From: a virus
Taxonomy: Duplodnaviria > Caudoviricetes
Length of the DNA: 64,000 nucleotides
Strand: one strand, 5' to 3'
IMG/VR virus record: IMGVR_UViG_3300036713_000599
The translations under genes and the position numbers were made by a program. Positions 3,777-61,431 of the stretch are shown one piece after another. The notes below the pieces were generated by a model. The model had not been told where the DNA came from. It saw only the letters and a list, made by a program, of their open reading frames with translations, and made no database searches. Within the stretch, counting starts at the first letter, position 1, and the number at the start of each line of letters is the position of its first letter.

Positions 3777-6700
3777 ATGCCTGTTGCTACCAAATCCTTG
3801 TCTTTTGGCACGAATAAGTACGTCACGATGGGCGATGTGCTGGACGACGACGGGACGGGTGTTTTAGTTTTTTCATTTTGGTTGAAATGTTCTTCCGGTA
3901 CCTATCCTCTCATCTTGAAACAAGAGGGGGTGAGCCCCTATTTGGGTTACGCTGTTTGGGTTGATTCAGACAAGATTCGGTGGGATCTTGTTCACGACAC
4001 AACTACGAATGCCTTGAAGGTAGAGGCTTCTATGGCTTCGGTTGCAACGGGTCAGTGGACCCATGTCGTGGTTATGTCAGATGGCAGTCGTACGCCAGGG
4101 GGAATGCGGGTATATGTCAATGGCGTCCAACAGGTATTGACCACGATTACAAATACCTTGACCTTGTCTATTTCGAATTCTTATCCATTCCAATTTGGAA
4201 AGCAAGGTGCGAGAACAGACTGGTGGTTCACTGGCAATCTGACTCAGGTGGTCAAGTACACCCGAATGCTCACGTCGGCAGAGGTTGCGGATCTGTACAA
4301 CCAGGGTAACCCCCCGAATGTCACCAATCTTAGCTCAAATGACGCCATTGAGGCATATTGGCCTCTTGGGGAAGGTGACGTCTTCCCGGTAAATTTCGAA
4401 AGAGCGTTGGATCCTGTAGTCTTGTACAATGCTGGAACAGAGAGTTCTTTTTACCAACTTTCGAACAAAATTGAGTCTATTGAGTGGTGTCGAGGTGAGG
4501 GTCTAGAAGACACGGCACCGTACTATGAAGGGCCGGGTGGTGTTTTTTGTCCATTTTCGACTAAATTTGACGTAGACGCTTTTTACAGAGCAGGGCCTAT
4601 CAATAATTTGGCTCACACGAGTCCTTGGACGATGTCTGTGTGGCTTAAATGGAACTACACAGATAGCCGTAATGGCGTGATAATGGGTCGTTTCGTAGGT
4701 TATCCGGGAGGCGCTGAGGGTTATGGTTACGGGTTATACACAGAAGGAAGTTCTTCTGGGGCTGTAGGGATCTCTACACGGTTTAGCGGAGTCTCTCAAG
4801 GACCTGTTGTTCAGACGACGGCAGAGACGTTCAATGACAACAATTGGCACCATGTTGTGGCGACTTATGATGGAAGCCAAGTTGCGGGAGGTATGCACAT
4901 TTGGGTAGACGGGGAGGATGAACCCCTCACAATATTGAGCAGTGCGACCCTCCAAGGGCTGCCCACAGCCTCTTTTTGCTTGGCAGGGTACGCTGACACA
5001 GCAGGTACCCAATCTTTTGAGGGGTTCATGTCTCAACCCACTATGTGGGGTCGAGTACTTGGTGTGAATGAAATCGAGGCCTTGTACAATGGTGGTGTGC
5101 CAGCAGAAATAGCCGGTTTTGCGGACCCTAGCTTACTAGGTTATTGGAGGATGGGCGATGGGGACACCTTCCCTGTTATTTCCGACAATATTGGAAGTAA
5201 TGACGCCATTATTCAACAAGCGAGCCCCCCATTCTCCCAAACTTCTTGCTTGTTTGACGGTTCGAATGAGTACGTGACGATGGGGAATGCGTCTGAGTTG
5301 TCCTTTGAGAGGACGGACGCATTCTCGGTTTCTTGTTGGTTCAAGTTGGACCCTGGAGACTCAGGGTATCTTATGTCCAAAATGGACGCAGGACCGACGG
5401 GATATGGCCTTTTTGCTGATTCCAGTAATACCAGAATATACATTCAAGATACCTCATCTTTTCAGATAGAAGTGACTACTACAAGTGCCTACGATGATGG
5501 AATTTGGCATCACGTCGTGGTAACCTATGACGGGACCTCGCTTGCGAGCGGGATCTCTATCTATATTGACGGCAGTTCTGTCGGTACTTCGACCGTAGAT
5601 GATACTCTTGGCACCAACAGTATTCTCAACACTGCATCCTTCAATGTTAGTAGTCGTACTGACGGTGCTGCAGGTCTGATGGACGGCAAGATTGATGAAG
5701 CGGCCGTCTACGACAAAGAACTGTCCTCTGGGGAGGTGGCTGCTATCTATAATGGAGGGATTCCGGTAGACTTGTCGGGGCTTAGCAGCTCTCCTAGCCT
5801 CGTCGGTTGGTGGAGAATGGGAGATGGGGACACTTTTCCCACACTCACAGACAATTCTTCCAATAGCAACGATGGTACTGCGGTCAACATGGAATCAGAG
5901 GATTTCCATGGAGACGCTCCAGGAAAATTCTCTCTATTATTTGACGGAGTGGACGAATACGTGACGATGGGGAATGTGACCGAATTATCCTTTGAAAGGA
6001 CGGATGCGTTTTCGATTAGTTTTTGGTTCAAGTCAACGTCAACTGTTGAGCAATACATTGTAGGTAAAACAGCGGCAGCACCTGCGTACACAGGATACCT
6101 GGTATACTTAGTTGGATCTGTGGGGACCATACGTGTCCAGTTGGTTGCTGATGTTGGTTCCAGTAACTACCTGCAGAAGACTACAGTTGCCTCGTACAAT
6201 GACGGGGCTTGGCATCACGTTGTTATTGCGTACAATGGATCGAGTAAGGCTGTAGGTGTGTCGATCTATGTGGATGGTGTCCAAGTCAGCACAACAGACA
6301 ACCTAGATGCCCTGTCATCAAGCATTGCCACAACGGCCGCTTTCGAAGTCGGTGATGCTTCAGCAGCTACTTCGCCGTTTGTCGGTCAGGTTAAGGATGT
6401 TGCTGTCTACGACAAAGAGCTTTTTGCCGTGGAGGTGGTCGAGATTCACCAAGGAGGTGCACTTTTGAGTCTTCCCACCTCGTCGGGTTTGTTGGGCTAC
6501 TGGAGGCTCGGAGATGGGGACACTTTCCCGACTGCCACAGATAGCAGCGTGAGTGGCAATGACGGAACCATGACAAACATGGAGTCCGCGGACATTGTGA
6601 ATGATGCCCCCTTGCCTATGTTCTTTCCGTATTACAGTGTGTCTGTTGTTAATGACACGACACCTCGATTTTCGCAATTGTCTTGTCTGTTCAATGGGAC

Positions 6701-28241: not shown

Positions 28242-28256
28242 CCCTCCTTTGGTGTA
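28242..28256 (+). promoter_or_regulatory. CCCTCYTTYGGTGTA motif upstream of SNF2 helicase
   Basis: ccctcctttggtgta, 10 nt before ATG 28267; related to copies at 41037, 50507 and 61036(-). Confidence 0.5.
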
Positions 28257-28266
28257 TGTCATCAGG

Positions 28267-33727: not shown

Positions 33728-34149
33728 AACTCATAACACGGGAAAAGGGCGAATTACACCTCCTATTGCTGACCGGATGGGAAGGGGAGTGGGCTATCTT
33801 GAGAGGAACCGTCTACGGTGACCTACTGAGCGTGATCAGTAGGGACGTTGTCGACCACGCTTTGCACGGATGGTCGCGCCCTCTCGTGGATGCTCTCGGG
33901 ATCCCTCCCGATGGTGCTTTACGAAAAGTACCGGTAGCGGCTCGTTGGTGCTGGCTAAAACATAAACGTCCCCCGCATCTGCGGTCCTGCCCCCTACAAG
34001 GTCCTGAATGCCACCATGTGGCGAAGAAGATGCCTTGGTGCTTTGAGCCCACGGAAGCGGATGACAGTATTCGTCGAATGGCTGCGAAAGCTATCGAGCA
34101 ATGGAGGGAAGGGGTGTATGTGGTGGTAGTGGAGGAAGCCTATGACTGA
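33712..34149 (+). CDS. Hypothetical protein with Cys/His cluster
   Basis: C...H..SCP...ECH...CFEP; coupled to polA. Confidence 0.55.
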   Translation: MSRSIKLITREKGELHLLLLTGWEGEWAILRGTVYGDLLSVISRDVVDHALHGWSRPLVDALGIPPDGALRKVPVAARWCWLKHKRPPHLRSCPLQGPECHHVAKKMPWCFEPTEADDSIRRMAAKAIEQWREGVYVVVVEEAYD

Positions 34150-37100
34150 TGACATGAACGTGGAAGACGTTGACTTTGAAGAAATGTTCAAAGAACCTCC
34201 CAAGAAGCCGAAAGCTAAGGTGACCCCTGTCGGAGATATCGGGGGTGATATAGACGAATTTCTGGCGGATGTGAAGCCAGCAGACGAACAAGAAGCCAAA
34301 ATGCTGACTAAGCCGTGGATGAAATTCCACGAGTTTATTTTGGTTAAAACCATTGAGGAAGTCAAGGCTCTTGTCGATGCAGCCATTAAACACGGTCGGT
34401 GTTCCCTCGATCTGGAGACAGAAGGGCTCGATAATCGCATCGACTACGACGGGGAGGGTAGACCTTACACGCGACATAAGATCGTGGGCTACTGTATCTC
34501 AGTCAAAGGTGTGGGACATTATCTCCCCCTTAGGCACAAGTACGATAAAACGTACAAACAAGCAAACCCCAACCTTCCTATAGAAGAGACGGACGCCGAA
34601 ATCAAACGATTGTGTCTGGCAGCTCAACCCGTGATTGCGGAGGATGCTCCGGATCAGTACGCTTCTCCAAAATTTGAGAAGCCCCCGCAGCTAGTCATCT
34701 ACTTCTGGCATGCGAAATTTGATCAAGAGTTTCTGTACCCTGTGACAGGAATTCACTTTTGGCATCCCGATTCCTTTGAGGATGGGATGCTTTCGACTTA
34801 CGTGCTCTATACAGACGACGTGCTCAGCCTCAAGGTGAACGCCAAAGAGAGGTTGAAAGTCCAGGACCCAGAGACGGGGGAAGTGCACCCCTACGAGATG
34901 ATCGAATTCACGGAACTCTTTCAAAAGGGGACCCCCAAGAGGTTCGCCAATCTATACCCTCGGGACGGGACAGGGATGGTGCTGTATGCCTGCTCAGACG
35001 CTATCTGTACTGAGCTGTTGTGTGAAGCCAAGAAGGTCGTGTGGAAGCATACAGTCGAGGGACTCAAGTACGAGTACAAGAGTCCTGTGGGCCCTTCTCA
35101 TGGGCCGAAGTTTCGAGGTATCCTTCGGATCGAAAAACAGGCTGCCCAGGCTGTACGAGAAATGGAGCGTTCTCGTACACTTGTAGACAAAGATGCAATT
35201 GAAGACCTTCTTGAAGAGGCGTATAAAGAAAAGCAAGAATTTGAGGAAAAGTTGGTAATGGCCGCGAAGGCTAAGGGATTTGAGGGTTTTAATCCATCCT
35301 CCACTGCACAACTCTCCGACTTCCTCTTCACGAAGCGTGGTTTGGATCTGCCAGGCAAGCCTGAGAAAAATGAGGCAAGCGGACAATACAAGACAGACGC
35401 GAAGACGCTGGAGGCCATCTACGAAAACAATCAGGATATCGAGGTCCTTCGATGGGTCGTAATGTACCGACAAATTGATAAAACCATCGGGACGTATCTC
35501 ACCAAGCTCAGTCACAACACGGACGAGTTTAATCAACTCCGGTTCAACTTTCAGCAAACAGGGGCTGGGACAGGTAGATTCACCGCCCCTCAGGGTAAAG
35601 CAGAGGAAGGCTTCGCAGCCGTTCCGATCCACGGTATCCCTGCCAGATCGGATCCGAAACGACCGAAGGTCGCTAATTCCCTTCGCCGACTGTTTGTCGC
35701 CCATGAAGGATACGTGATCGTCAAGGTCGACTATGCAGGCCAAGAGCTTCGTGTAGTTACCTGTATCACCAAAGAGCCTAAGTGGAGGAAGGAGTTCCTA
35801 GAGGGGACAGGAGACTTACATACCCTCACGGCCCAAGCATTTTTTGGAGACCACATTACAAAGAATCACAAGAAAGAACGTACTTGTGGAAAAATCGCGA
35901 ACTTCGCTCTAATATACGGGGGCGGGGTAGGGGCCGTCCAACGAGCGGTCGGTTGCGACAAGGTTGAGGCAGCTCGAAAGAAAGAAGCTTTCGACGCCAG
36001 CGTCCCGACCTTTTCCTCGTGGGTTAAAAGTCAGCACAGGCTCGTCAAGAAAAACAAGTATGTTACGACAGGGTTTGGTCGGTACATTTCTGTTCCTGAC
36101 GCAAATATCAAAGCAGGGGAATACACAGCACGGACGAAGAAGCACCCTCCAAAGCTCGTGGACGAAAAGACGGCGAGAAAGATCAGGGCCTCTTGTGAGA
36201 GGCAGTCAACCAACTTTCCTGTGCAAGGTTGCAATTTTTATGCCAGTTTGGTGAATACTCGAAAAGGTTGGGTAAAAATAGGGGAATTGTGTGGTTCGGG
36301 CGAAACTTTCTCGGTTTGGACGGGCACAAGGTGGGCAGACGCTACAGCCCATGACATGGGTGGGTGTGAGCTTGCCAATGTTTACTTAACGGATGGTACT
36401 ACCGTTAGGTGCGACACTCGACACAAGCTTTTGGTGGTCTCGGACCAGGGTTACGACTGGGTGGACTACCAGGACTTAGAACCAGGGATGGCGGTTGCGA
36501 CCTCTCTCTGTGAACAGGTAGAGTACACTCCCCCGCCTTTACCTCTCATAGAACACCGACCCAATACCAAGGACATGGAGTCTCTTTGGTACTGGTTAGG
36601 TAGGTATGTAGGCGACAGCTGGTTTAGCGTGTTTAGTGGGACTACCTTACAATACTCATTTGGAGATCACGAGAAAGAAGCTATAGAGGCGTGTCGAACT
36701 TTCTGGGAGAAAGTGGGCGTTAGTGCTGACGTTGGATCGAATACACACACTCCCTGTCGAGAAATGTCCACTCGTTGCACAGTTACTGTTCAGAGTCGAG
36801 AACTGCACGACTGGCTTAAGTTGATTGGGCTGAAGGAAGGCGCCACAACGCACACCAAACGGGCCCCGTCCAGGGTCTTCAGTGAGACACTAGCTAATCG
36901 AAAGGCGTTTCTTCGAGGAGTCGTGGATTCTGGTGGGCATGAGCCCAAGCTTCCGAAGAAAATCAATGGAGTACGGGAAACCAGTAAAAAAGGGAATCCT
37001 TACAACATCCATCTGTGCCAGCGTCCTTTGCTGGAAGATTTGAAGCTGCTGTTTCGATCAGTTGGCGTAGAATCCGTCATCAGAGACAGAAACGGTTGTA

Positions 37101-38317
37101 GTAAAGCTACAACCAATTATCGTCTTGACCCTAATCGTAGGATGTATGAACGGAACGTCATGGGAAGAAAAGACGTCCATGGTCCCAAATTCCACGACAT
37201 GGACGCCCCTCAATTCCTTGTGGACGACTTCCTATCCCACGGCCCGTTCCCCAGAAAAGCTTTCCAAGGAGACGAGTCCGCTTACACACTCCACAAAAGA
37301 CTTCAGGTAGGTGGGAAAGTCACAGTGTATGCGCTGAAGAGGCTTTGCACGTTACTTGATGTGGTTTTAAACCACCCTATCTACGGGTTCAAGCGTATCG
37401 TCTCCAAAGAGAATCTTGGCACGGTCGAACATACCTACACGTTGTCTGTGCAGGACCCTCTTCATCGTTTTGAAGCTGACGGAGTCATCACCAAGAACTC
37501 TGGAGCAGACATGCTAAAGATCAGCTTCGTTAAGCTGATCAAAGTATTCCATCGTAAGGGGTGGTTACGGGATGGCGGTGACGATTCTGTTCGAATGATC
37601 ATGACAGTCCACGACGAGATTGTCTTTGAAGTCCGCAAGGACCGTCTCATGGAGGCTATCCCAGAAATTACTAGGTGCATGGAGAGTCCGCCCCGCCTTC
37701 GCAAGTGGGACATCCCTTTCTATGTTGAGCCCCTCATTGGTGAAAGCTGGGACGCAAAATACGACTGGGAAGACTTGATGGCGGGTAAGACGACGTACTT
37801 CCATAGCAAAGAAGAGCCTGATAAACCAGTTCCCCAATGGCTTCTCGATCTCATCGAACCACAAGGGAAGGATTGGCGTCTACCTTTTGAAGACGACCTT
37901 CCCCCGCCAAAGAGCGATGAGTCGGTCGCCCCTGTCGTTAAAGATGGCGCTCTTGTCGCTCAGAAGCCGGCTCAGGAAGTGCTTAAGCCTTCTACGAGGG
38001 CACCGGCCCCTAAACCGGTGCCTCAGCCCCCTGAGGTGGCCGTAGAGGGGTCACAACAGATGGCCGTGTTCGCTATCTCCAGCTCTCAACTCACTCGACA
38101 GTCCATTCGGATCGTGTCTCAGGTGATAAAAGGAGCCGAACCATTCGAAAACGAAAAGGACTTGAGCGGATACAAGATTCTTCAGGTGGTTGATGAGACT
38201 GGTTACGTTCTGATTTCTGCCAAATGGAGGGTGTTAGTAGACCCTGACATTGTCGGTAGGGAATTTGCACTAAGGAACCTTGGACCGGGGAACTACGACA
38301 TAGTGACTTTGACGTAG
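34142..38317 (+). CDS. polA: Family A DNA polymerase (3'-5' exonuclease + polymerase) with intein
   Basis: ExoI DLETEG, ExoII HAKFD, ExoIII YACSD; motif A VDYAGQELR, B KIANFALIYG, C VHDEIV. No 5'-3' nuclease domain. Confidence 0.92.
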   Translation: MTDDMNVEDVDFEEMFKEPPKKPKAKVTPVGDIGGDIDEFLADVKPADEQEAKMLTKPWMKFHEFILVKTIEEVKALVDAAIKHGRCSLDLETEGLDNRIDYDGEGRPYTRHKIVGYCISVKGVGHYLPLRHKYDKTYKQANPNLPIEETDAEIKRLCLAAQPVIAEDAPDQYASPKFEKPPQLVIYFWHAKFDQEFLYPVTGIHFWHPDSFEDGMLSTYVLYTDDVLSLKVNAKERLKVQDPETGEVHPYEMIEFTELFQKGTPKRFANLYPRDGTGMVLYACSDAICTELLCEAKKVVWKHTVEGLKYEYKSPVGPSHGPKFRGILRIEKQAAQAVREMERSRTLVDKDAIEDLLEEAYKEKQEFEEKLVMAAKAKGFEGFNPSSTAQLSDFLFTKRGLDLPGKPEKNEASGQYKTDAKTLEAIYENNQDIEVLRWVVMYRQIDKTIGTYLTKLSHNTDEFNQLRFNFQQTGAGTGRFTAPQGKAEEGFAAVPIHGIPARSDPKRPKVANSLRRLFVAHEGYVIVKVDYAGQELRVVTCITKEPKWRKEFLEGTGDLHTLTAQAFFGDHITKNHKKERTCGKIANFALIYGGGVGAVQRAVGCDKVEAARKKEAFDASVPTFSSWVKSQHRLVKKNKYVTTGFGRYISVPDANIKAGEYTARTKKHPPKLVDEKTARKIRASCERQSTNFPVQGCNFYASLVNTRKGWVKIGELCGSGETFSVWTGTRWADATAHDMGGCELANVYLTDGTTVRCDTRHKLLVVSDQGYDWVDYQDLEPGMAVATSLCEQVEYTPPPLPLIEHRPNTKDMESLWYWLGRYVGDSWFSVFSGTTLQYSFGDHEKEAIEACRTFWEKVGVSADVGSNTHTPCREMSTRCTVTVQSRELHDWLKLIGLKEGATTHTKRAPSRVFSETLANRKAFLRGVVDSGGHEPKLPKKINGVRETSKKGNPYNIHLCQRPLLEDLKLLFRSVGVESVIRDRNGCSKATTNYRLDPNRRMYERNVMGRKDVHGPKFHDMDAPQFLVDDFLSHGPFPRKAFQGDESAYTLHKRLQVGGKVTVYALKRLCTLLDVVLNHPIYGFKRIVSKENLGTVEHTYTLSVQDPLHRFEADGVITKNSGADMLKISFVKLIKVFHRKGWLRDGGDDSVRMIMTVHDEIVFEVRKDRLMEAIPEITRCMESPPRLRKWDIPFYVEPLIGESWDAKYDWEDLMAGKTTYFHSKEEPDKPVPQWLLDLIEPQGKDWRLPFEDDLPPPKSDESVAPVVKDGALVAQKPAQEVLKPSTRAPAPKPVPQPPEVAVEGSQQMAVFAISSSQLTRQSIRIVSQVIKGAEPFENEKDLSGYKILQVVDETGYVLISAKWRVLVDPDIVGREFALRNLGPGNYDIVTLT
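36230..37498 (+). other. Intein, 423 aa, with LAGLIDADG-type endonuclease domain
   Basis: Inserted in NFPVQG|SGADMLK. Starts with C; block B DTRHKL; LGRYVGDS and FLRGVVDSGG motifs; ends ITKN before Ser+1. Confidence 0.88.
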
Positions 38318-38337
38318 TTTTTGATAGGACCTTCACA

Positions 38338-38886
38338 ATGGCTGAAAAACTCGATCATATGAAAGAATGCAATGAGTTTAAAGTTCCCGTTGAAGAATTT
38401 GAAACTCAATTTTGCTCACGTTGCCTCCAATCTGAATGCGGGCGGAGTCAGCATGGTAAAAGCCAGTTCGATTCCAGGGTCCAGGATTGGGAGCGTCGCT
38501 TGTTCCTAGAGGTGCCCCGTATGAGTCCTGATGACACAAGGTTCCATAGCTTCCAGGCCAAGAAGTTTTTGGACATCCACGACCTGGGACCCGTAGAGGT
38601 CAGGGGCTGGGTCGACCCCAACAACCTCTCGGAGCCCGAGCCTGAAGAGGACGAAGGCCCTCCAACGGATCCTTCTCCTCCTCCTTCGAACATGCAAGAG
38701 GAACCTGCCCAGGCTTTCTCTGACGGCCGTATGAATACGCCGGCTCAACCGAAAATGATGGTAGGTGGTCAAAAAGCTCCCACTAAGCCAACCAAACCGG
38801 TGTTAGATCAATGGGAACCCAAAAAGACAGAAACTAGCGGTATCAAAATGGTCCAACCTGGGGCCAAAATAAAGTTAGGATCATAG
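38338..38886 (+). CDS. Hypothetical protein (Cys cluster, Pro/acidic linker)
   Basis: C...CSRC...C near the N-terminus. Confidence 0.55.
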   Translation: MAEKLDHMKECNEFKVPVEEFETQFCSRCLQSECGRSQHGKSQFDSRVQDWERRLFLEVPRMSPDDTRFHSFQAKKFLDIHDLGPVEVRGWVDPNNLSEPEPEEDEGPPTDPSPPPSNMQEEPAQAFSDGRMNTPAQPKMMVGGQKAPTKPTKPVLDQWEPKKTETSGIKMVQPGAKIKLGS

Positions 38887-38894
38887 GAGACGTT

Positions 38895-39086
38895 ATGAGC
38901 GGCGAACAAATGAAGTGGGAACACATCATCTATGAGGATGGTAGGGTCGTTACAAATGTCCTGGAAAGACAGGACAGCGCACAATGTGGTCAGATCCGTC
39001 AAATCACCAATGGTATTGGTGATGAGCTGAGTGACGAACAAACTGGCCCTGAATGCGACGAAGTGTTTGAAAGGACCGTCGGTTAG
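38895..39086 (+). CDS. DUF2997-like small protein
   Basis: I..DGRV...V......C......IG......T matches the recalled family pattern; GGAG RBS; next to a DUF1257-like gene. Confidence 0.5.
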   Translation: MSGEQMKWEHIIYEDGRVVTNVLERQDSAQCGQIRQITNGIGDELSDEQTGPECDEVFERTVG

Positions 39087-39116
39087 TCTAGCCTGACTAG
39101 ACGCGAAAGGACTACC

Positions 39117-39446
39117 ATGAGCCATCGGATCACAACACAAACGTCGATCAAAAACAAGAAGCTTGCCATTCAGGCACTGAAAACTGCGGGTATGGACTAC
39201 TCCGAGCAGGGGGATCGTATTCGCGTCGTCAGTGGCGCTATGCGTGGGGCCGAGATCAACCTCAATACAGGTCGGATTACCGGTGATACCGACTATCATT
39301 CACAGAAGGAACTAGGTGCCCTGCGGAAGTACTATTCCGAGGCTCAAATTCGCGAACGATGTCTGATGGAAGGCCATACGGTTGAAGAGCGGCAAGAGCA
39401 GAGAGATGGCACGATTCGCCTCGTATGTGTGGGGACGTTTGCGTAG
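39117..39446 (+). CDS. DUF1257 (Ycf35-like) protein
   Basis: MSH.....T.IK....A..AL...G...L..YS...I......EG..VEE.....GTIRLV. Confidence 0.6.
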   Translation: MSHRITTQTSIKNKKLAIQALKTAGMDYSEQGDRIRVVSGAMRGAEINLNTGRITGDTDYHSQKELGALRKYYSEAQIRERCLMEGHTVEERQEQRDGTIRLVCVGTFA

Positions 39447-39454
39447 ACGCGCAG

Positions 39455-40717
39455 GTTAACAAATCCGAGCGTGGGAGCCCCACCCACTTCAATTGGGTGG
39501 GGTTTGAGAGCAGCTAAGGCAAACCTAACTATTTCTAACCAATGCTTTTCGGCGTAGAGTCTAAGTGATGAAGCTGATTCGATCCACCAAAGTCTCCTTG
39601 AAAGAGACAAATCCAAGAAAGCTAAAAATCCTGGAAGAAGTATTCCAGGAATACGGTCGGATTGTAAACCTCTTCATCGAACTATTCTGGGAAAATCCCG
39701 TCAAAAAGTCAAAGCTTCTAAAGCCAATCGTCGACTCGGTTCTCCCTACTTGGCTTTCCGCTCGGCTTCGAAAGGTTGCCGCCCGGGAAGCCCTTGATCT
39801 GGTCCTTTCGGCCAAAAGGTCCGCGAAAGCTCTCGGAAAAGAAGCCAAAAAGCCGATTCATAGAGGGAATCGAATGTGTGTTTCGAGCACCATCGCTTCC
39901 CTTGACTTGGCTGGAAAAGCTACATCCTATGATCGCTGGCTCCACCTTCATTCCATCGGGCATCATCCCGAATTTGGAAGAGTTATCCTAGATCTCCCGA
40001 TCAAATTACACAAGCATTATAATGAGTTAGCTTCTATTGGAAGACGACAAGAATCCTACATTCTAACCTCCCGTTACGTTCAGCTCAGCTTTGAAATCGT
40101 CACCGAGGAAAAGCTCCCTTCTGACCAATGTATCGGAATCGATAGTGGAATCAAGGCTTTAGCTTCGACTTCTACTCGACATCAATTCGGGAAAGACATA
40201 GAAAAAGGGATTGAACGGATAAAACGTTGTAAACACGGTTCAAAGGGGCAAAAGAGGGCTAGAAGGGCTCTTCGCCAGAGGATGAATGAGGTGGTGAAGG
40301 AACTCTTTGACACTCTGGAGCCTACTTTGATCGTGGTAGAAAAGCTTCGTTCCTTGAATAAAGGGACAAGAGTCAAACGCCGATTGACTAAAAACGTTCG
40401 GCGCTCTATCGGTAGCTGGACATATCGTTATTGGTTGGAAAGACTAGAAAGAGAGTGTGAAGTGAGACGTTCTCGCTTTCGCTCGGTTAATCCATATAAA
40501 ACCAGTCAACGATGTTCGGTATGTGGTCATATCGATAGGAGAAATCGGCGAGGAGAGGTATTCAAATGTCGGAGTTGTGATCACACTGACAATGCGGACA
40601 TAAATGCCGCTTTGAATATCTTGGATCGATTTCTTACCGGACCTTACGGTGCCGGTTGCAAACCTTTAACCTTGATTGGAGCTACATGAGTAGTTTTGAA
40701 CAAGTTTGCAGGAACGG
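39455..40717 (+). mobile_element. TnpB-only IS200/IS605/IS607-superfamily element (no tnpA)
   Basis: Left hairpin ccccaccca-cttcaat-tgggtgggg (39478..39502), tnpB, and a structured 3' end finishing ...gtttgcaggaacgg. Boundaries approximate. Confidence 0.7.
39568..40689 (+). CDS. tnpB: RNA-guided endonuclease TnpB
   Basis: RuvC-I IGIDSG, RuvC-II VVEKL, Zn ribbon CSVC...CRSC, RuvC-III NADINAALNI; catalytic D/E/D residues present. Confidence 0.92.
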   Translation: MKLIRSTKVSLKETNPRKLKILEEVFQEYGRIVNLFIELFWENPVKKSKLLKPIVDSVLPTWLSARLRKVAAREALDLVLSAKRSAKALGKEAKKPIHRGNRMCVSSTIASLDLAGKATSYDRWLHLHSIGHHPEFGRVILDLPIKLHKHYNELASIGRRQESYILTSRYVQLSFEIVTEEKLPSDQCIGIDSGIKALASTSTRHQFGKDIEKGIERIKRCKHGSKGQKRARRALRQRMNEVVKELFDTLEPTLIVVEKLRSLNKGTRVKRRLTKNVRRSIGSWTYRYWLERLERECEVRRSRFRSVNPYKTSQRCSVCGHIDRRNRRGEVFKCRSCDHTDNADINAALNILDRFLTGPYGAGCKPLTLIGAT

Positions 40718-40735
40718 TTTTCGCGTCCTGGTAAA
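40636..40735 (+). ncRNA. Predicted TnpB reRNA/omega RNA 3' scaffold plus guide
   Basis: Hairpin accgg-acc/ggt-g-ccggt (40636..40656) and stem tgcaaac (40657..40663)/gtttgca (40704..40710) overlap the tnpB 3' end. TnpB reRNAs are known to derive from this region. Ends inferred. Confidence 0.45.
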
Positions 40736-40880
40736 CTACCCCTCCCTAAAGGGAGGGGCTTTGTGCCCCTCTGGTCCTAGAGAGAGTTGAGCGGGGCTCA
40801 CGCCCCGCTGTTTCTGCTTCATCGGGCCCCCAACGGGGTAACCTCCACAGACTGCTATACCGTGGTCTCCACGGCAAGCG
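40731..40880 (-). ncRNA. Orphan reRNA/omega-RNA-type scaffold
   Basis: The minus strand reads gccgtggagaccacggtatagcagtctgtggag...ggcccgatgaagcagaa...gcggggcgtgagccccgc...aagcccctccctttagggaggggtagtttac, with the hallmark blocks of IS605 tnpB 3' ends and no cognate tnpB. Confidence 0.55.
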
Positions 40881-41021
40881 AATTTACCTGAAGTCCACAA
40901 GGCTCTCTGGGGGCAGCACTTCTGGTCACCAAGCTATTTAGCGGTTTCTTGCGGCGGGGCTCCTCTGGAAACGATCAAGAAATACGTTCAGAGTCAAAAG
41001 GGCGATTCCGCCCCGCCCTGA
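40872..41021 (+). pseudogene. tnpA: IS200/IS605 Y1 transposase C-terminal fragment
   Basis: RQANLPEVHKALWGQHFWSPSYLAVSCGGAPLETIKKYVQSQK matches the TnpA C-terminus including the catalytic Tyr helix. No start and no HUH motif. Confidence 0.85.
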
Positions 41022-41091
41022 AGGACGGAGCCACCTCGCCCTCTTTCGGTGTATAGTCCCATAAGATCGGATGGTGGCTCCTTGAGGCGGC

Positions 41092-42699
41092 ATGAAAGGA
41101 AAACGAATGAATCCTGAGATGATCTTCCACTTGAAGTCGATGACTCGTTTCATCTACTACGTCACGGAAGAAGAAGACGTCTTCTTGGCGAAGTTGGACA
41201 AGGGGCTCAAGCAGTACAAGGATCACACTTTCGTTTTCAATTACGCCTTTGGACTTGTCCCCTTAGAACGTCTCGTAGCTGATTGGAAGAATCATGCTCA
41301 TCAGGAGAGTGATGCCGAGAGTCGGGATATCCAGAGTGCTCTTGTTCAGGTGTACCGGGCAGAGCCCAGGGAAAAACAGAACTTCTACATCTTCACGGAC
41401 CCTGATCGGATGTTGGCTGATCCTATGGTTCAGCGCCGCTTCCTGAATATTGCCCACCAACTCCATCAGGACGATAAAATAGTCAAGATCATCATCTTTG
41501 TTGGACCTAGGCCGGTCATCCCCCCTAAACTTCAGCGCTATATCCAGGTCATAAAAGATACGGGCTTAGAAGAAAAGGCTGTGATCAACCTCATAAAGAA
41601 GTTCTGCTGTGAGTTGAAAGATATAACGGTGCCAGAAAATCCAAAGGCACTAGCTGAACATTTTCGAGGTCTGACTCATTTCGAAGCAACATCAGTGCTG
41701 TCTCAGAGCATCATTCAGACCAAAGGGGACAAGAACAATCCCTGTAGGATTGATCCTCGTATCATTTCGGAGTTTAAACAGTCGCAGCTCGCCAAGACGG
41801 ACTTACTCAGCTTCGTCGACACTAAAGATACGACCTTTAAAGACGTCGGAGGCAACAACCGTTTCAAACAATGGGCTCTTAAGACGAGAGCCGCATGGAC
41901 GCCAGAGGGTCGAAAATTTGGGTTATTCCCTCCTAAGGGGGTGCTGCTTATGGGGGTCTGGGGATGCGGGAAATCACTCAGCGTCAAGGCCATGGCCAGC
42001 GAGTGGCGTCTTCCTGTCGTATTGCTCGAAATGGGTAAACTTCGTAGTTCTGCCGTAGGTCAGACCGAGGCCAACGTGTATCGTGCCATTAACCTGATCG
42101 AGTCCATAGGTAGCTGCATGGTGTGGGTGGATGAAGCCGAAAAGAGCTTATCTGGCGGCCAGTCCAGTGCCATGAGCGACGCAGGAACAACTAGTAGGAC
42201 GATCGGAATTTTATCCAACTGGCTCCAGGAGACAAAATCTCCCGTGTGTCTTGCCATGACGGCCAACAGTCTCAGTACGATGCCGATCGAATTTATCAAT
42301 CGGATGGATGAACGGTTCTTTTTCGACTTACCGTCTGAAGATGAGAGGATCGCAATTCTCAAGATCCATCTTGCGAAACGAGGCCGCAACCCTGACGACT
42401 ACCAGCTCGCTGTCCTCGCTGAGCACGCCAAAAATATGGTGGGTCGAGAAATCGAACAGGCCATAGGGGCGGCTCTCGTAGACTCATTCATCGAAGGCAA
42501 GAACGACCTTGATGGAGAAATCCTTGTCAAACAATTGAAGACAAAACCTCGCATCTTTAAGACAATGGCAGAGGAATTAGCCGAGGTTCTGGAGTGGGTG
42601 GGGTACGATGAAGACGTTGATGACGGTATTCGTGCCCGGTTCGCCTCCGCGTCTCATAGCCAGAATTTCACTAATTTCCACAAAACATCCGAGGAATAG
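41092..42699 (+). CDS. ycf46: Ycf46-like AAA+ ATPase
   Basis: N-terminal inactive P-loop-like region; KGVLLMGVWGCGKS, VWVDEAEK, TAN, RMDERFFFDLP. Confidence 0.8.
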   Translation: MKGKRMNPEMIFHLKSMTRFIYYVTEEEDVFLAKLDKGLKQYKDHTFVFNYAFGLVPLERLVADWKNHAHQESDAESRDIQSALVQVYRAEPREKQNFYIFTDPDRMLADPMVQRRFLNIAHQLHQDDKIVKIIIFVGPRPVIPPKLQRYIQVIKDTGLEEKAVINLIKKFCCELKDITVPENPKALAEHFRGLTHFEATSVLSQSIIQTKGDKNNPCRIDPRIISEFKQSQLAKTDLLSFVDTKDTTFKDVGGNNRFKQWALKTRAAWTPEGRKFGLFPPKGVLLMGVWGCGKSLSVKAMASEWRLPVVLLEMGKLRSSAVGQTEANVYRAINLIESIGSCMVWVDEAEKSLSGGQSSAMSDAGTTSRTIGILSNWLQETKSPVCLAMTANSLSTMPIEFINRMDERFFFDLPSEDERIAILKIHLAKRGRNPDDYQLAVLAEHAKNMVGREIEQAIGAALVDSFIEGKNDLDGEILVKQLKTKPRIFKTMAEELAEVLEWVGYDEDVDDGIRARFASASHSQNFTNFHKTSEE

Positions 42700-42702
42700 C
42701 GT

Positions 42703-43905
42703 ATGGCCGGCAAGCTAGTTAAGCCACCTTCACCTCCCATTGGGGAACGCAGACTGGCTCCTGTGGTCAAGACCAAAGCCAATACATCAGCCGAGGACTT
42801 GGTCTTGGCGAGGACAGTTATCTCCCGACATGACAGTTTACAAAAAATCTTTTTAGAGGCCAAGAAACAAGGTAAGTCTTCTGAAGAAATCGCTGATGTA
42901 GTGGGTTCCGCCCTTGCTAACTTCTGGGAAGGAGAAGATAAGGCAACCAGGGCGTATGGCGCCGCCCTGTACTTAGCGGACGAGCATGCCCAGCTCGATC
43001 CCGGGATGTTCCTTGTCTCACAGGAGACGGGCGAGGTTATCGCTATTTTGAAGCCGGAAGACATCGAGACTCCAGCTCCTGTAGCTCGGGAAGGGTCAAA
43101 CAAGCTTGCCCAACCGCTCCCCCGCATTCGACCCGACATTGAAGCGTTCATTACTTCCTGGCATTTTGACCAAGAAAGGGAAAAAAAGGCTTGTGAGGCT
43201 TTGGCTGCAAAGGGGCACCAAACAGCCTTCCTGAAAGAAATCGACGACCCTCGCCTCCTCATAGTGACAAAAAGGGGTCGCCGGGAGCTTGCTAGACAAT
43301 ACGCTTGCCACAATACACCTAGGAAGCTGCTAGAAGGCCTGAAAGGCTCTTCAAGAGACTTTCTCAGTTATTTGGGCATAAAGGACTTCGACGGGAACGA
43401 TAAGGACATCGACGTAGCCAAAATGGCGGTGGCCAACGTTATTACTTCCGTTCAAGATATTCAAGCCTATAATCTAGGGTTTAACTTTTCCATGGTTATA
43501 CGTCAGAGCCTGTCCAATGGCTGGGTTCAAGAGATTGCTCGAACGGTAATTCATGCAGCCCAAAAGATGTACAAAGATGTCGAACCTGTGAAGTCCAGTG
43601 AGCTAGGTCCGAAGCATTTCGAGGATGCGTGTTTCTGGATCACGCCAGCCGAACTTGTTCGTAATGTCCTCGAATGTAAACCAAAGGCTTCAATTTTCTT
43701 GGTCGAGAATGCTCCTTTGGTTGGCTTCAAGGAATCAAACATAGGGGACCTCTTGATTCCAAAAGAGTTCCTTGTAGAAAGCCACGAATTGTTCGACAAG
43801 TGGGCGATCAAGTCCCGCCTGTCGTACGCTCTCCGACTAAAATGGCAGAACATTAAGTACGTTCCGGTAAGTGATGTTTCATATGACGGGCACCTTGTCA
43901 ATTAG
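42703..43905 (+). CDS. Hypothetical protein, possibly a divergent capsid-fold paralogue
   Basis: Coding by length and position. The fold is only a recalled resemblance (see findings). Confidence 0.5.
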   Translation: MAGKLVKPPSPPIGERRLAPVVKTKANTSAEDLVLARTVISRHDSLQKIFLEAKKQGKSSEEIADVVGSALANFWEGEDKATRAYGAALYLADEHAQLDPGMFLVSQETGEVIAILKPEDIETPAPVAREGSNKLAQPLPRIRPDIEAFITSWHFDQEREKKACEALAAKGHQTAFLKEIDDPRLLIVTKRGRRELARQYACHNTPRKLLEGLKGSSRDFLSYLGIKDFDGNDKDIDVAKMAVANVITSVQDIQAYNLGFNFSMVIRQSLSNGWVQEIARTVIHAAQKMYKDVEPVKSSELGPKHFEDACFWITPAELVRNVLECKPKASIFLVENAPLVGFKESNIGDLLIPKEFLVESHELFDKWAIKSRLSYALRLKWQNIKYVPVSDVSYDGHLVN

Positions 43906-50487: not shown

Positions 50488-50506
50488 GGAAGTCTGATAC
50501 CAGAGT

Positions 50507-50527
50507 CGCCCTCCTTCGGTGTAAGGT
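50507..50527 (+). promoter_or_regulatory. CGCCCTCCTTCGGTG-TAAGGT motif 6 nt before ATG 50534
   Basis: 16/17 identical to 41037..41053 and to the minus strand of 61036..61052. Confidence 0.55.
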
Positions 50528-61035: not shown

Positions 61036-61079
61036 TACACCGAAAGAGGGCGGCCCTTTAGGGACGGATAGTTTACCAG
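61036..61079 (+). mobile_element. 44-bp collapsed copy of the IS605 remnant ends
   Basis: 61036..61052 is identical to the reverse complement of 41037..41053. 61054..61079 matches the reverse complement of 40728..40753 at 24/26. Confidence 0.6.
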
Positions 61080-61104: not shown

Positions 61105-61431
61105 GTGACTGACGAACTCGACATCCGATGGCAACGAAACTTCGAGGCAACCCAGCGGAGGCTTGAGGCCAAAGAAAGGGCCATTGCCTACCTTGGAGGT
61201 AAATGTCGTATCTGCGGCTACGACAAGTGCCCCGCTGCCATGGCTTTCCACCACCTGGACCCGAGGGAGAAGGACTTTGAGGTCAGCTCTCGCCTCTCTT
61301 GGGGAGCGGTTAAGCCTGAGTTGGATAAATGTGTGTTATTGTGTTCCAACTGCCATCAAGAGGTGCATGCTGGATGGCATCCAGAGTATTTGAGCGACGA
61401 GGAGCTTGGTGTGCGGGGCGACGACACCTGA
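61105..61431 (+). CDS. HNH endonuclease
   Basis: CRICG...FHHLDP...KCVLLCSNCHQEVH. Confidence 0.85.
   Translation: MTDELDIRWQRNFEATQRRLEAKERAIAYLGGKCRICGYDKCPAAMAFHHLDPREKDFEVSSRLSWGAVKPELDKCVLLCSNCHQEVHAGWHPEYLSDEELGVRGDDT

Follow-up and report, generated by a model that had tools for sequence, protein, structure and literature searches.

The IS607-type element CboIStron has a TnpB nuclease with a TGGG target, a GG core and an omega-RNA scaffold that ends in CGG (10.1101/2023.11.20.567912). For ISDra2 TnpB, the ~12 nucleotides (nt) proximal to the target-adjacent motif (TAM) decide cleavage, positions 13-16 tolerate mismatches and the cuts fall 15-21 nt from the TAM (PMC10097598). IS608 selects its cleavage motif by base pairing with a four-base DNA guide that lies before the end hairpin, AAAG/TTAC being a guide/target pair of this element (PMC5934647). 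Gene-less IS200/IS605 derivatives that carry an omega-RNA, the palindrome-associated transposable elements (PATEs), are acted on in trans by TnpB (10.1101/2023.03.14.532601). Here we analyse a 1.55-kb stack of two insertion sequences (ISs) of these kinds in a 64,000-nt stretch of Caudoviricetes DNA (IMG/VR virus record IMGVR_UViG_3300036713_000599; hereafter the window), which is part of a metagenome contig (282,752 bp) whose gene content is that of a huge phage. In it a tnpB-bearing element of the IS607 lineage (element 1) lies tail to tail with an internally deleted IS605 (element 2), the two being separated by a short host spacer.

The reading we favour, with a probability of about 0.6, is that the two elements inserted independently into a tight gap between a terminator and a promoter, leaving an active IS607 TnpB beside a largely silent IS605 passenger. 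The DUF1257 and AAA ATPase genes that flank the stack are direct neighbours in 15/15 related phage loci, DUF1257 lying directly upstream, so the DNA between them is an insertion and, as the original prediction had it, no gene is broken. The AAA gene is Ycf46-like by resemblance only. The prediction had placed the stack at 39455-41053. Its tail-to-tail layout stands, although both borders move inwards: a copy of element 1 in another phage (L016) and an IS-free allele of the locus (L001) put the start at about 39503, and 41049-41053 is host target motif, so that the stack ends at 41048. An IS-free allele in relatives had been proposed as the check on boundaries, and L001, together with L016, did fix the start of element 1 and assign the hairpin in front of it to the host. 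As far as comparison of sequences can tell, the boundaries and families of both elements, the host spacer, the promoter motif and its rebuilding, the guide matches and the intact parent proteins described below are established.

The target of element 2 provides the most informative part of the locus. Upstream of the AAA gene, GGTGTA is found in 15/15 relatives, mostly just 3' of a strong hairpin. Of 84 YGGTGTA sites counted in the window and 12 distinct loci, 27 are followed at a distance of 5-30 nt by a long open reading frame (ORF), compared with an average of 2.3% for 47 permuted motifs. The arrangement YGGTGTA-N10-ATG occurs in 54, 28, 30, 20 and 23 copies in five related genomes (0-2 for the reversed control) and in only 0-5 copies in four phages with related IS605s of TCAY/CCAT targets. 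In the closest relative T is found at -7 in 27 of 40 sites, a position outside the search pattern, which extends the motif to YGGTG-TAnnnT, from -17 to -7 relative to the ATG; the logo of these 40 sites shows no conservation at -35 and none upstream of -18. The motif ends 6 nt before the start codon, with window sites at 28250-28260, 30057, 48808, 49208, 50517, 53981 (+) and 61042 (-). An extended -10 promoter of leaderless messages would have this layout, and we infer a promoter function. CCCTCYTTY before GGTGTA was also considered as a host promoter consensus and rejected: it has 0 matches in five relatives, there is no conservation upstream of -18, and the letters are left-end tips of the IS605 family.

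The DNA guide at the left end of element 2, GTGG, predicts an ACAC target, which is found 14 nt upstream as TACAC (41053-41049, read on the minus strand), the reverse complement of GTGTA. In 15 of 21 related left ends the motif that this guide/target rule calls for is found 12-18 nt upstream (shuffles: mean 2.7, maximum 8), some of the failures being mislocated hairpins. The closer IS605 relatives mostly have GAAA or GAAG guides with TCAT or TCAC targets. Insertion falls between positions -16 and -15 of the promoter, and the left end begins with C followed by G or A; hence G(-16) and Y(-17) are restored. As read from these pairings, the GTGG guide of element 2 would select the core of the -35-less promoter of this phage clade and its left end would restore the two bases that insertion displaces. 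Left ends that start with C are common in IS605 relatives, so part of this fit is older than the retargeting. At the right end, CAG was rejected as part of the element since AAAG predicts cleavage after TTAC and CA is given by the promoter motif.

All visible traces of the family stand in the same promoter register, namely 41048, 61041, the left-end tips at 50518 and (weaker) 28251, and two sites in the longer relative L138. The parent IS605 agrees by its gene coordinates, its tnpA stop lying 42 nt before the next start, exactly the predicted figure. Promoter-like sites account for ~9-10 of the 99 TACAC sites in the window. With the mini element at 61041 a promoter motif is likewise completed, 9 nt ahead of an ATG. 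This element sits within the promoter of a gene on the minus strand and directly upstream of an HNH-like ORF (~61129-61431). Scans of viral contigs with DNA patterns of the element 2 ends gave 0 or chance matches only. In L138 the IS605 has a truncated tnpB and a decayed right end, and its left-end hairpin has been lost between CGCCCT repeats; a left end without its hairpin illustrates how the bare tips may have originated. Sample ERZ922555 carries both IS families (L138, 2179-2995; L016, 4936-6150), on contigs with the same promoter motif.

Element 2 had been described as an RNA-only remnant without tnpB. It indeed holds no functional gene, but the final 46 codons of tnpB and the final 49 of tnpA are still present. 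Its scaffold, predicted to be a complete right-end RNA (reRNA) type, bears this out: when 20 foreign TnpB 3' ends, and no others, were used to build a covariance model, all 109 of its positions aligned to 40731-40887 (-) with 42.8 bits (E ~1e-8), and this strand folds at z = -5.0. No Rfam family matches the omega-RNA scaffold. In its closest omega-RNA relative (L114, a 297-kb phage) a 25-bp sequence is repeated before the left end and shortly after the right end. The retained tnpB tail is identical in 46/46 amino acids (aa) to the C-terminus of a TnpB, P0157, and its 420-aa form P0158, both assigned to the contig of the window together with a whole TnpA, P0153 (NF033573, 145 bits). The catalytic residues D186, E270 and D366 are present in P0158, and the genes of P0153 and P0158 lie side by side and divergent in an ENA assembly containing the AAA gene as well. 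Element 2 is probably still movable by the TnpA encoded elsewhere on the contig.

Element 1 had been taken for an IS605-type element. We assign it instead to the IS607 lineage because a serine-recombinase C-terminus lies directly upstream of tnpB in 22/82 relatives and because its TGGG target and CGG scaffold end are those of CboIStron. The copy in the window has no recombinase in the 62-65 bp between its left end and the start codon (the search covered this element only), and judged on its gene content it is a non-autonomous IS607-lineage derivative, not a complete IS607. It has no target duplication and no terminal inverted repeats, and against the NCBIfam IS607_TnpB model tnpB1 scores 28.6 bits, compared with a cut-off of 350. 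The L016 copy, in another phage context, is 89% identical, with the alignment limited to 39498-40724. In both, the junctions read TGGGG/TT on the left and AACGG/TT on the right, with the GG core at each; GGTTT being common to both junctions, the boundaries are uncertain by ~1-3 nt. The 3' structure had been predicted to end near 40717, and this position is where we find the AACG(G/A) end shared by 63/68 distinct relatives, followed by T in 61/63 and free sequence beyond. That T may belong to the element or to the target, which shifts the start of guide 1 by one base (40718 or 40719).

The tnpB1 protein (373 aa) appears catalytically intact, as predicted: RuvC D192/E258/D344 and zinc-finger C316/319/334/337 are invariant across an alignment of 30 homologues. 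A search with the single protein in viral contigs gave no match, whereas the alignment search succeeded; a second copy on the contig is 93.6% identical and a copy in another sample 92%. The phage-type promoter within element 1 has one mismatch (CGGCG) in the window, and its L016 counterpart is a perfect CGGTG-TAGAGT. Scaffold 1 contains one weak hairpin by RNAalifold, with compensatory changes in 3/5 pairs among 14 relatives, and its single-sequence fold is weak (z -1.9). Immediately to the right of the window and L016 copies (40718-40724 and 6151-6157), 6/7 bases agree (TTTTCGC and TTCTCGC) at sites that are otherwise unrelated, possibly an extended target preference. In many tnpB-only relatives of the IS607 clade (L025-L055) the common sequence begins at the start codon of tnpB and stops at AACGGT, with no conservation of the left end; these may have spread by homing rather than by transposition.

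The TGGG(G) target motif of element 1 (39498-39502) is supplied by the 3' arm of a GC stem (39478-39502). Joined to the spacer, this stem is followed by TTTTCGCGTC, and in L001 a like stem is followed by TTTTTGCGTC. We therefore read the hairpin and the T-run of the spacer as the putative terminator of the phage, with element 1 separating the stem from its U-tract. The alternative that the hairpin is the left end of an IS was discarded, as it is absent upstream of the L016 copy and has a counterpart in the IS-free L001.

A gap of ~13 bp between the two ends had been noted, and it is occupied by a 13-bp spacer (40718-40730), after which the minus-strand right end of the IS605 begins at 40731. 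The guide starts are as originally written, guide 1 to within 1 nt and guide 2 reading CAGG from 40730. The proposal that each element provides the guide of the other holds for positions 14 onward (14-20), which do read into the end of the neighbour; the first 13 nt of both guides (guide 1 on the plus strand, guide 2 on the minus strand) are host spacer. Given that the ~12 TAM-proximal nt are decisive, the neighbour contributes little to guide function and does not supply a functional guide. Both guides match a reconstructed doubly empty allele in 15/15 nt, owing to the AC common to TTAC and TACAC and to the GG present at either IS607 junction. The resident allele offers neither guide an adjacent TAM, and the window contains no other TAM-flanked guide targets.

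Expression of the orphan omega-RNA of element 2 is doubtful, as no minus-strand promoter was found upstream of scaffold 2. The minus strand lacks GGTGTA from 33760 to 43319 and has no near match to the promoter with the -7 T within 1.9 kb, nor is there a sigma-70 site upstream of the scaffold. The tnpB gene of a relative (L139) has a phage-type motif within the 5' end of tnpA, a region no longer present in element 2. Were both RNAs produced, an overlap of 19-27 nt would let them pair at a computed ~-35 to -50 kcal/mol, strong enough that both guides would be blocked. The plus-strand tnpB transcript, antisense to the orphan, is more likely to be made.

These data bear on the idea that the pair is regulatory, the elements supplying guides to each other and the orphan RNA restraining the first omega-RNA as its antisense or being loaded by the neighbouring TnpB. 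Across the spacer and a few bases of the ends the two predicted RNAs are perfect complements of each other, and guide positions 14-20 do lie in the neighbour. Such complementarity is automatic for any two convergent omega-RNAs this close, however, the first 13 guide bases are host, and with no minus-strand promoter found and expression of the orphan in doubt the antisense role originally suggested is doubtful too. Loading of the orphan RNA into TnpB1 also appears unlikely, because one scaffold is of the IS607 and the other of the IS605 family, with no similarity between them, and TnpB1 and the parent TnpB of element 2 are only 26% identical. Service of the orphan RNA to a TnpB in trans, the other role suggested, fares better in one respect, as P0157 and P0158 are cognate and on the contig; the neighbouring TnpB1 is an unlikely partner and the RNA has no promoter that we could find. 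We regard a regulatory pair as very improbable.

With a cognate nuclease on the contig, the stack could instead be a collaborative homing cassette with a double lock: both RNAs would be made, TnpB1 would use guide 1 and P0158 the orphan RNA in trans, and the stack would cut the empty, element-1-only and element-2-only alleles while being itself immune, an advantage that would keep the elements together and the scaffold whole. By construction guide 1 fully matches the element-2-only allele and guide 2 the element-1-only allele, and both match the empty allele over the 15 nt given above. An intact P0158 and P0153 on the same contig, the completeness of scaffold 2 with a tail identical to its parent, and the collaborative homing described for phage homing endonucleases and introns (PMC13565253) all speak for it. 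On the other side stand the missing promoter of the orphan RNA, the RNA pairing that would block both guides, and a deletion junction that microhomology accounts for. Among 90 relatives of element 1 there is no second such stack; in L063 (~2370-2430) an IS605-type right end instead abuts the left end of an IS607-clade tnpB, which is stacking in another geometry. We consider this cassette rather unlikely.

The stack might also consist of inert relics in a neutral gap, with neither RNA guiding cleavage in nature. Neither element has a whole transposase, the promoter before tnpB1 carries its mismatch relative to L016, other traces of the IS605 family have decayed to tips, and ten related phage records, themselves incomplete, contain no PF07282 TnpB. 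Yet tnpB1 is full length with all catalytic residues and has close copies elsewhere, and the ends and scaffold of element 2 are intact, so that we hold this explanation to be quite unlikely as well.

In the model that we prefer, that of independent insertions, we infer promoter and terminator function, RNA expression, nuclease activity and homing. Two unrelated non-autonomous ISs would have landed separately in the short gap between the terminator of one operon and the promoter of the next in a huge phage. Element 1 would have inserted at TGGG/T in the 3' arm of the terminator, where its left end returns three T's, so that termination is probably only weakened, and it would express tnpB and its omega-RNA from its own phage-type promoter, TnpB1 serving as an RNA-guided homing nuclease against alleles that lack the element. 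Element 2 would have inserted after TACAC, the template-strand image of the promoter core, through pairing of GTGG with ACAC; with the -16/-17 bases restored and no -35 part to lose, this insertion would be nearly harmless. Its omega-RNA would be mostly silent, having lost its promoter in the deletion and running against host transcription. TnpB1 could then cut the empty allele of a co-infecting phage inside the promoter, and repair would copy the whole stack, such that element 2 hitch-hikes on TnpB1 homing and the stack could spread as one unit.

Several points weigh against this model. The adjacency of two rare elements at 13 bp is improbable even between genes (~1%, a rough post hoc estimate) and might not be accidental. 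The deletion in element 2 reaches precisely as far as the scaffold's first conserved stem, perhaps because selection has preserved the RNA. Docking at the promoter need not be an adaptation either, since copies at promoter sites are also all that would survive if purifying selection removed insertions within genes.

Table 1. Features of the locus and related traces (positions are those of the window)
Feature	Positions	Strand	Basis or remark
DUF1257-family host gene, intact, upstream flank	39117..39446	+	PF06868, E 7e-5
Stem-loop of putative host intrinsic terminator	39478..39502	+	like hairpin and T-run at the same place in IS-free L001
Element 1, non-autonomous, IS607 lineage, 1215 bp, tnpB-only	39503..40717	+	L016 alignment; conserved AACGG end
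Putative phage-type promoter CGGCG-TAGAGT inside element 1	39550..39560	+	7 nt before tnpB ATG
tnpB1, 373 aa	39568..40689	+	NF040570 (guided_TnpB), 102 bits, cut-off 100; GTG start at 39565 also possible
Predicted omega-RNA scaffold 1	40627..40717	+	conserved block; overlaps tnpB1 3' end; 5' border approximate
Host spacer, 13 bp (putative terminator U-tract and bases up to promoter)	40718..40730		TTTTCGCGTC resembles TTTTTGCGTC of L001
Element 2, internally deleted IS605, 318 bp (PATE-like or miniature inverted-repeat element-like), both ends intact	40731..41048	-	sequence comparison
IS605 right end	40731..40762	-	DNA guide AAAG 40759-40762, hairpin 40739-40758, cleavage motif TTAC 40731-40734
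Predicted omega-RNA scaffold 2	40731..40875	-	complete from first conserved stem; also last 46 tnpB codons
Deletion junction between divergent tnpB and tnpA	40872..40875		3-4 nt microhomology (C)GGC; comparison with longer relative L138
Last 49 codons of Y1 tnpA	40872..41021	+	PF01797, E 1.5e-10; 46/49 identical to P0153
IS605 left end	41011..41048	-	first bases CG 41048-41047, DNA guide GTGG 41031-41034, hairpin 41011-41030
Rebuilt putative phage promoter CGGTG-TATAGT	41047..41057	+	logo, 40 sites; first two bases from IS left end, rest host
AAA ATPase host gene, intact, downstream flank	41092..42699	+	Pfam AAA; start possibly 41107
Left-end tip, same IS605 family	50506..50518	-	in GGTGTA-N10-ATG promoter
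Mini element, same IS605 family, 36 bp	61041..61076	+	left-end tip fused to right end; between TACAC and CAG

The locus has neighbours and relatives that show further insertions. The AAA gene of the relative L015 (5558-6906) is interrupted by ~1.35 kb between residues 343 and 341. The family A DNA polymerase of the window (1391 aa, 34142-38317) contains a long insertion (~residues 700-1125) that resembles an intein with a homing endonuclease.

Collectively, the parts of the stack are of known kinds and the idea of mutual guides was overstated. Their combination is of wider interest as a case of selfish RNA-guided elements in a gene-dense lytic phage, one that would target and restore a promoter core and another that brings a phage-type promoter for its nuclease. 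An IS605 DNA guide retargeted to a host regulatory motif predicts that the TnpA target is TACAC and that the TAM of TnpB has co-evolved to TACAC, and these predictions offer a direct test of how the specificities of transposase and nuclease stay matched. We found no description of such a natural change of target in the part of the literature that we covered. The analysis also defines a clade-wide, -35-less putative promoter consensus for uncultured huge phages. A bolder synthesis, which we offer as speculation and think improbable, is that an IS605 lineage was retargeted to the promoter core of a huge-phage clade and repairs it, and that its RNA-only derivative and an IS607 TnpB make up a homing cassette with two nucleases, the opposed guides of which share one spacer, cutting three competitor alleles and sparing the resident one.

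Compared with described systems, element 1 resembles the IS607 TnpB elements CboIStron (10.1101/2023.11.20.567912) and ISFba1 (PMC11061315) in its TGGG target, GG core, CGG scaffold end and RuvC triad, and the serine recombinase of its autonomous relatives is a trait shared with that lineage. Unlike them it has no recombinase and no intron, only the 62-65 bp before tnpB with a phage-type promoter, and its clade stands apart in the near-invariant T after GG and in its low score with the IS607_TnpB model.

Element 2 shares with the published PATEs (10.1101/2023.03.14.532601) its hairpin ends, a full omega-RNA scaffold, the lack of a functional gene and cognate TnpA and TnpB located elsewhere. 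It differs in being phage-borne, in having kept a tnpA tail, and in that its target within a host promoter forces the omega-RNA against host transcription. As in IS608 and ISDra2 (PMC5934647), the tetranucleotide guide of the left end predicts the motif and AAAG/TTAC are found at the right end; C, the base that IS608 prefers at target +1, is also present in both right flanks of the family that are readable. The guide itself, GTGG for ACAC, the promoter core, contrasts with the GAAR for TCAY of its relatives. Insertion at promoters in a fixed orientation, with expression of the host genes preserved, is known from TnGBS, ISLre2 and ISKra4 (PMC3942029). Those are DDE elements that insert 15-17 bp upstream of the -35 box by means of a protein signature, whereas element 2 is a Y1 element whose cut would fall inside the extended -10 by base pairing, with the lost bases replaced by its own end.

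The stack as a whole can be compared with phage collaborative homing (PMC13565253), in which an element without a nuclease lies beside a nuclease gene and is co-converted in the repair of a cut empty allele. Homing of the stack is our proposal, and it would differ from that system in having an RNA-guided nuclease and an IS derivative as the passenger.

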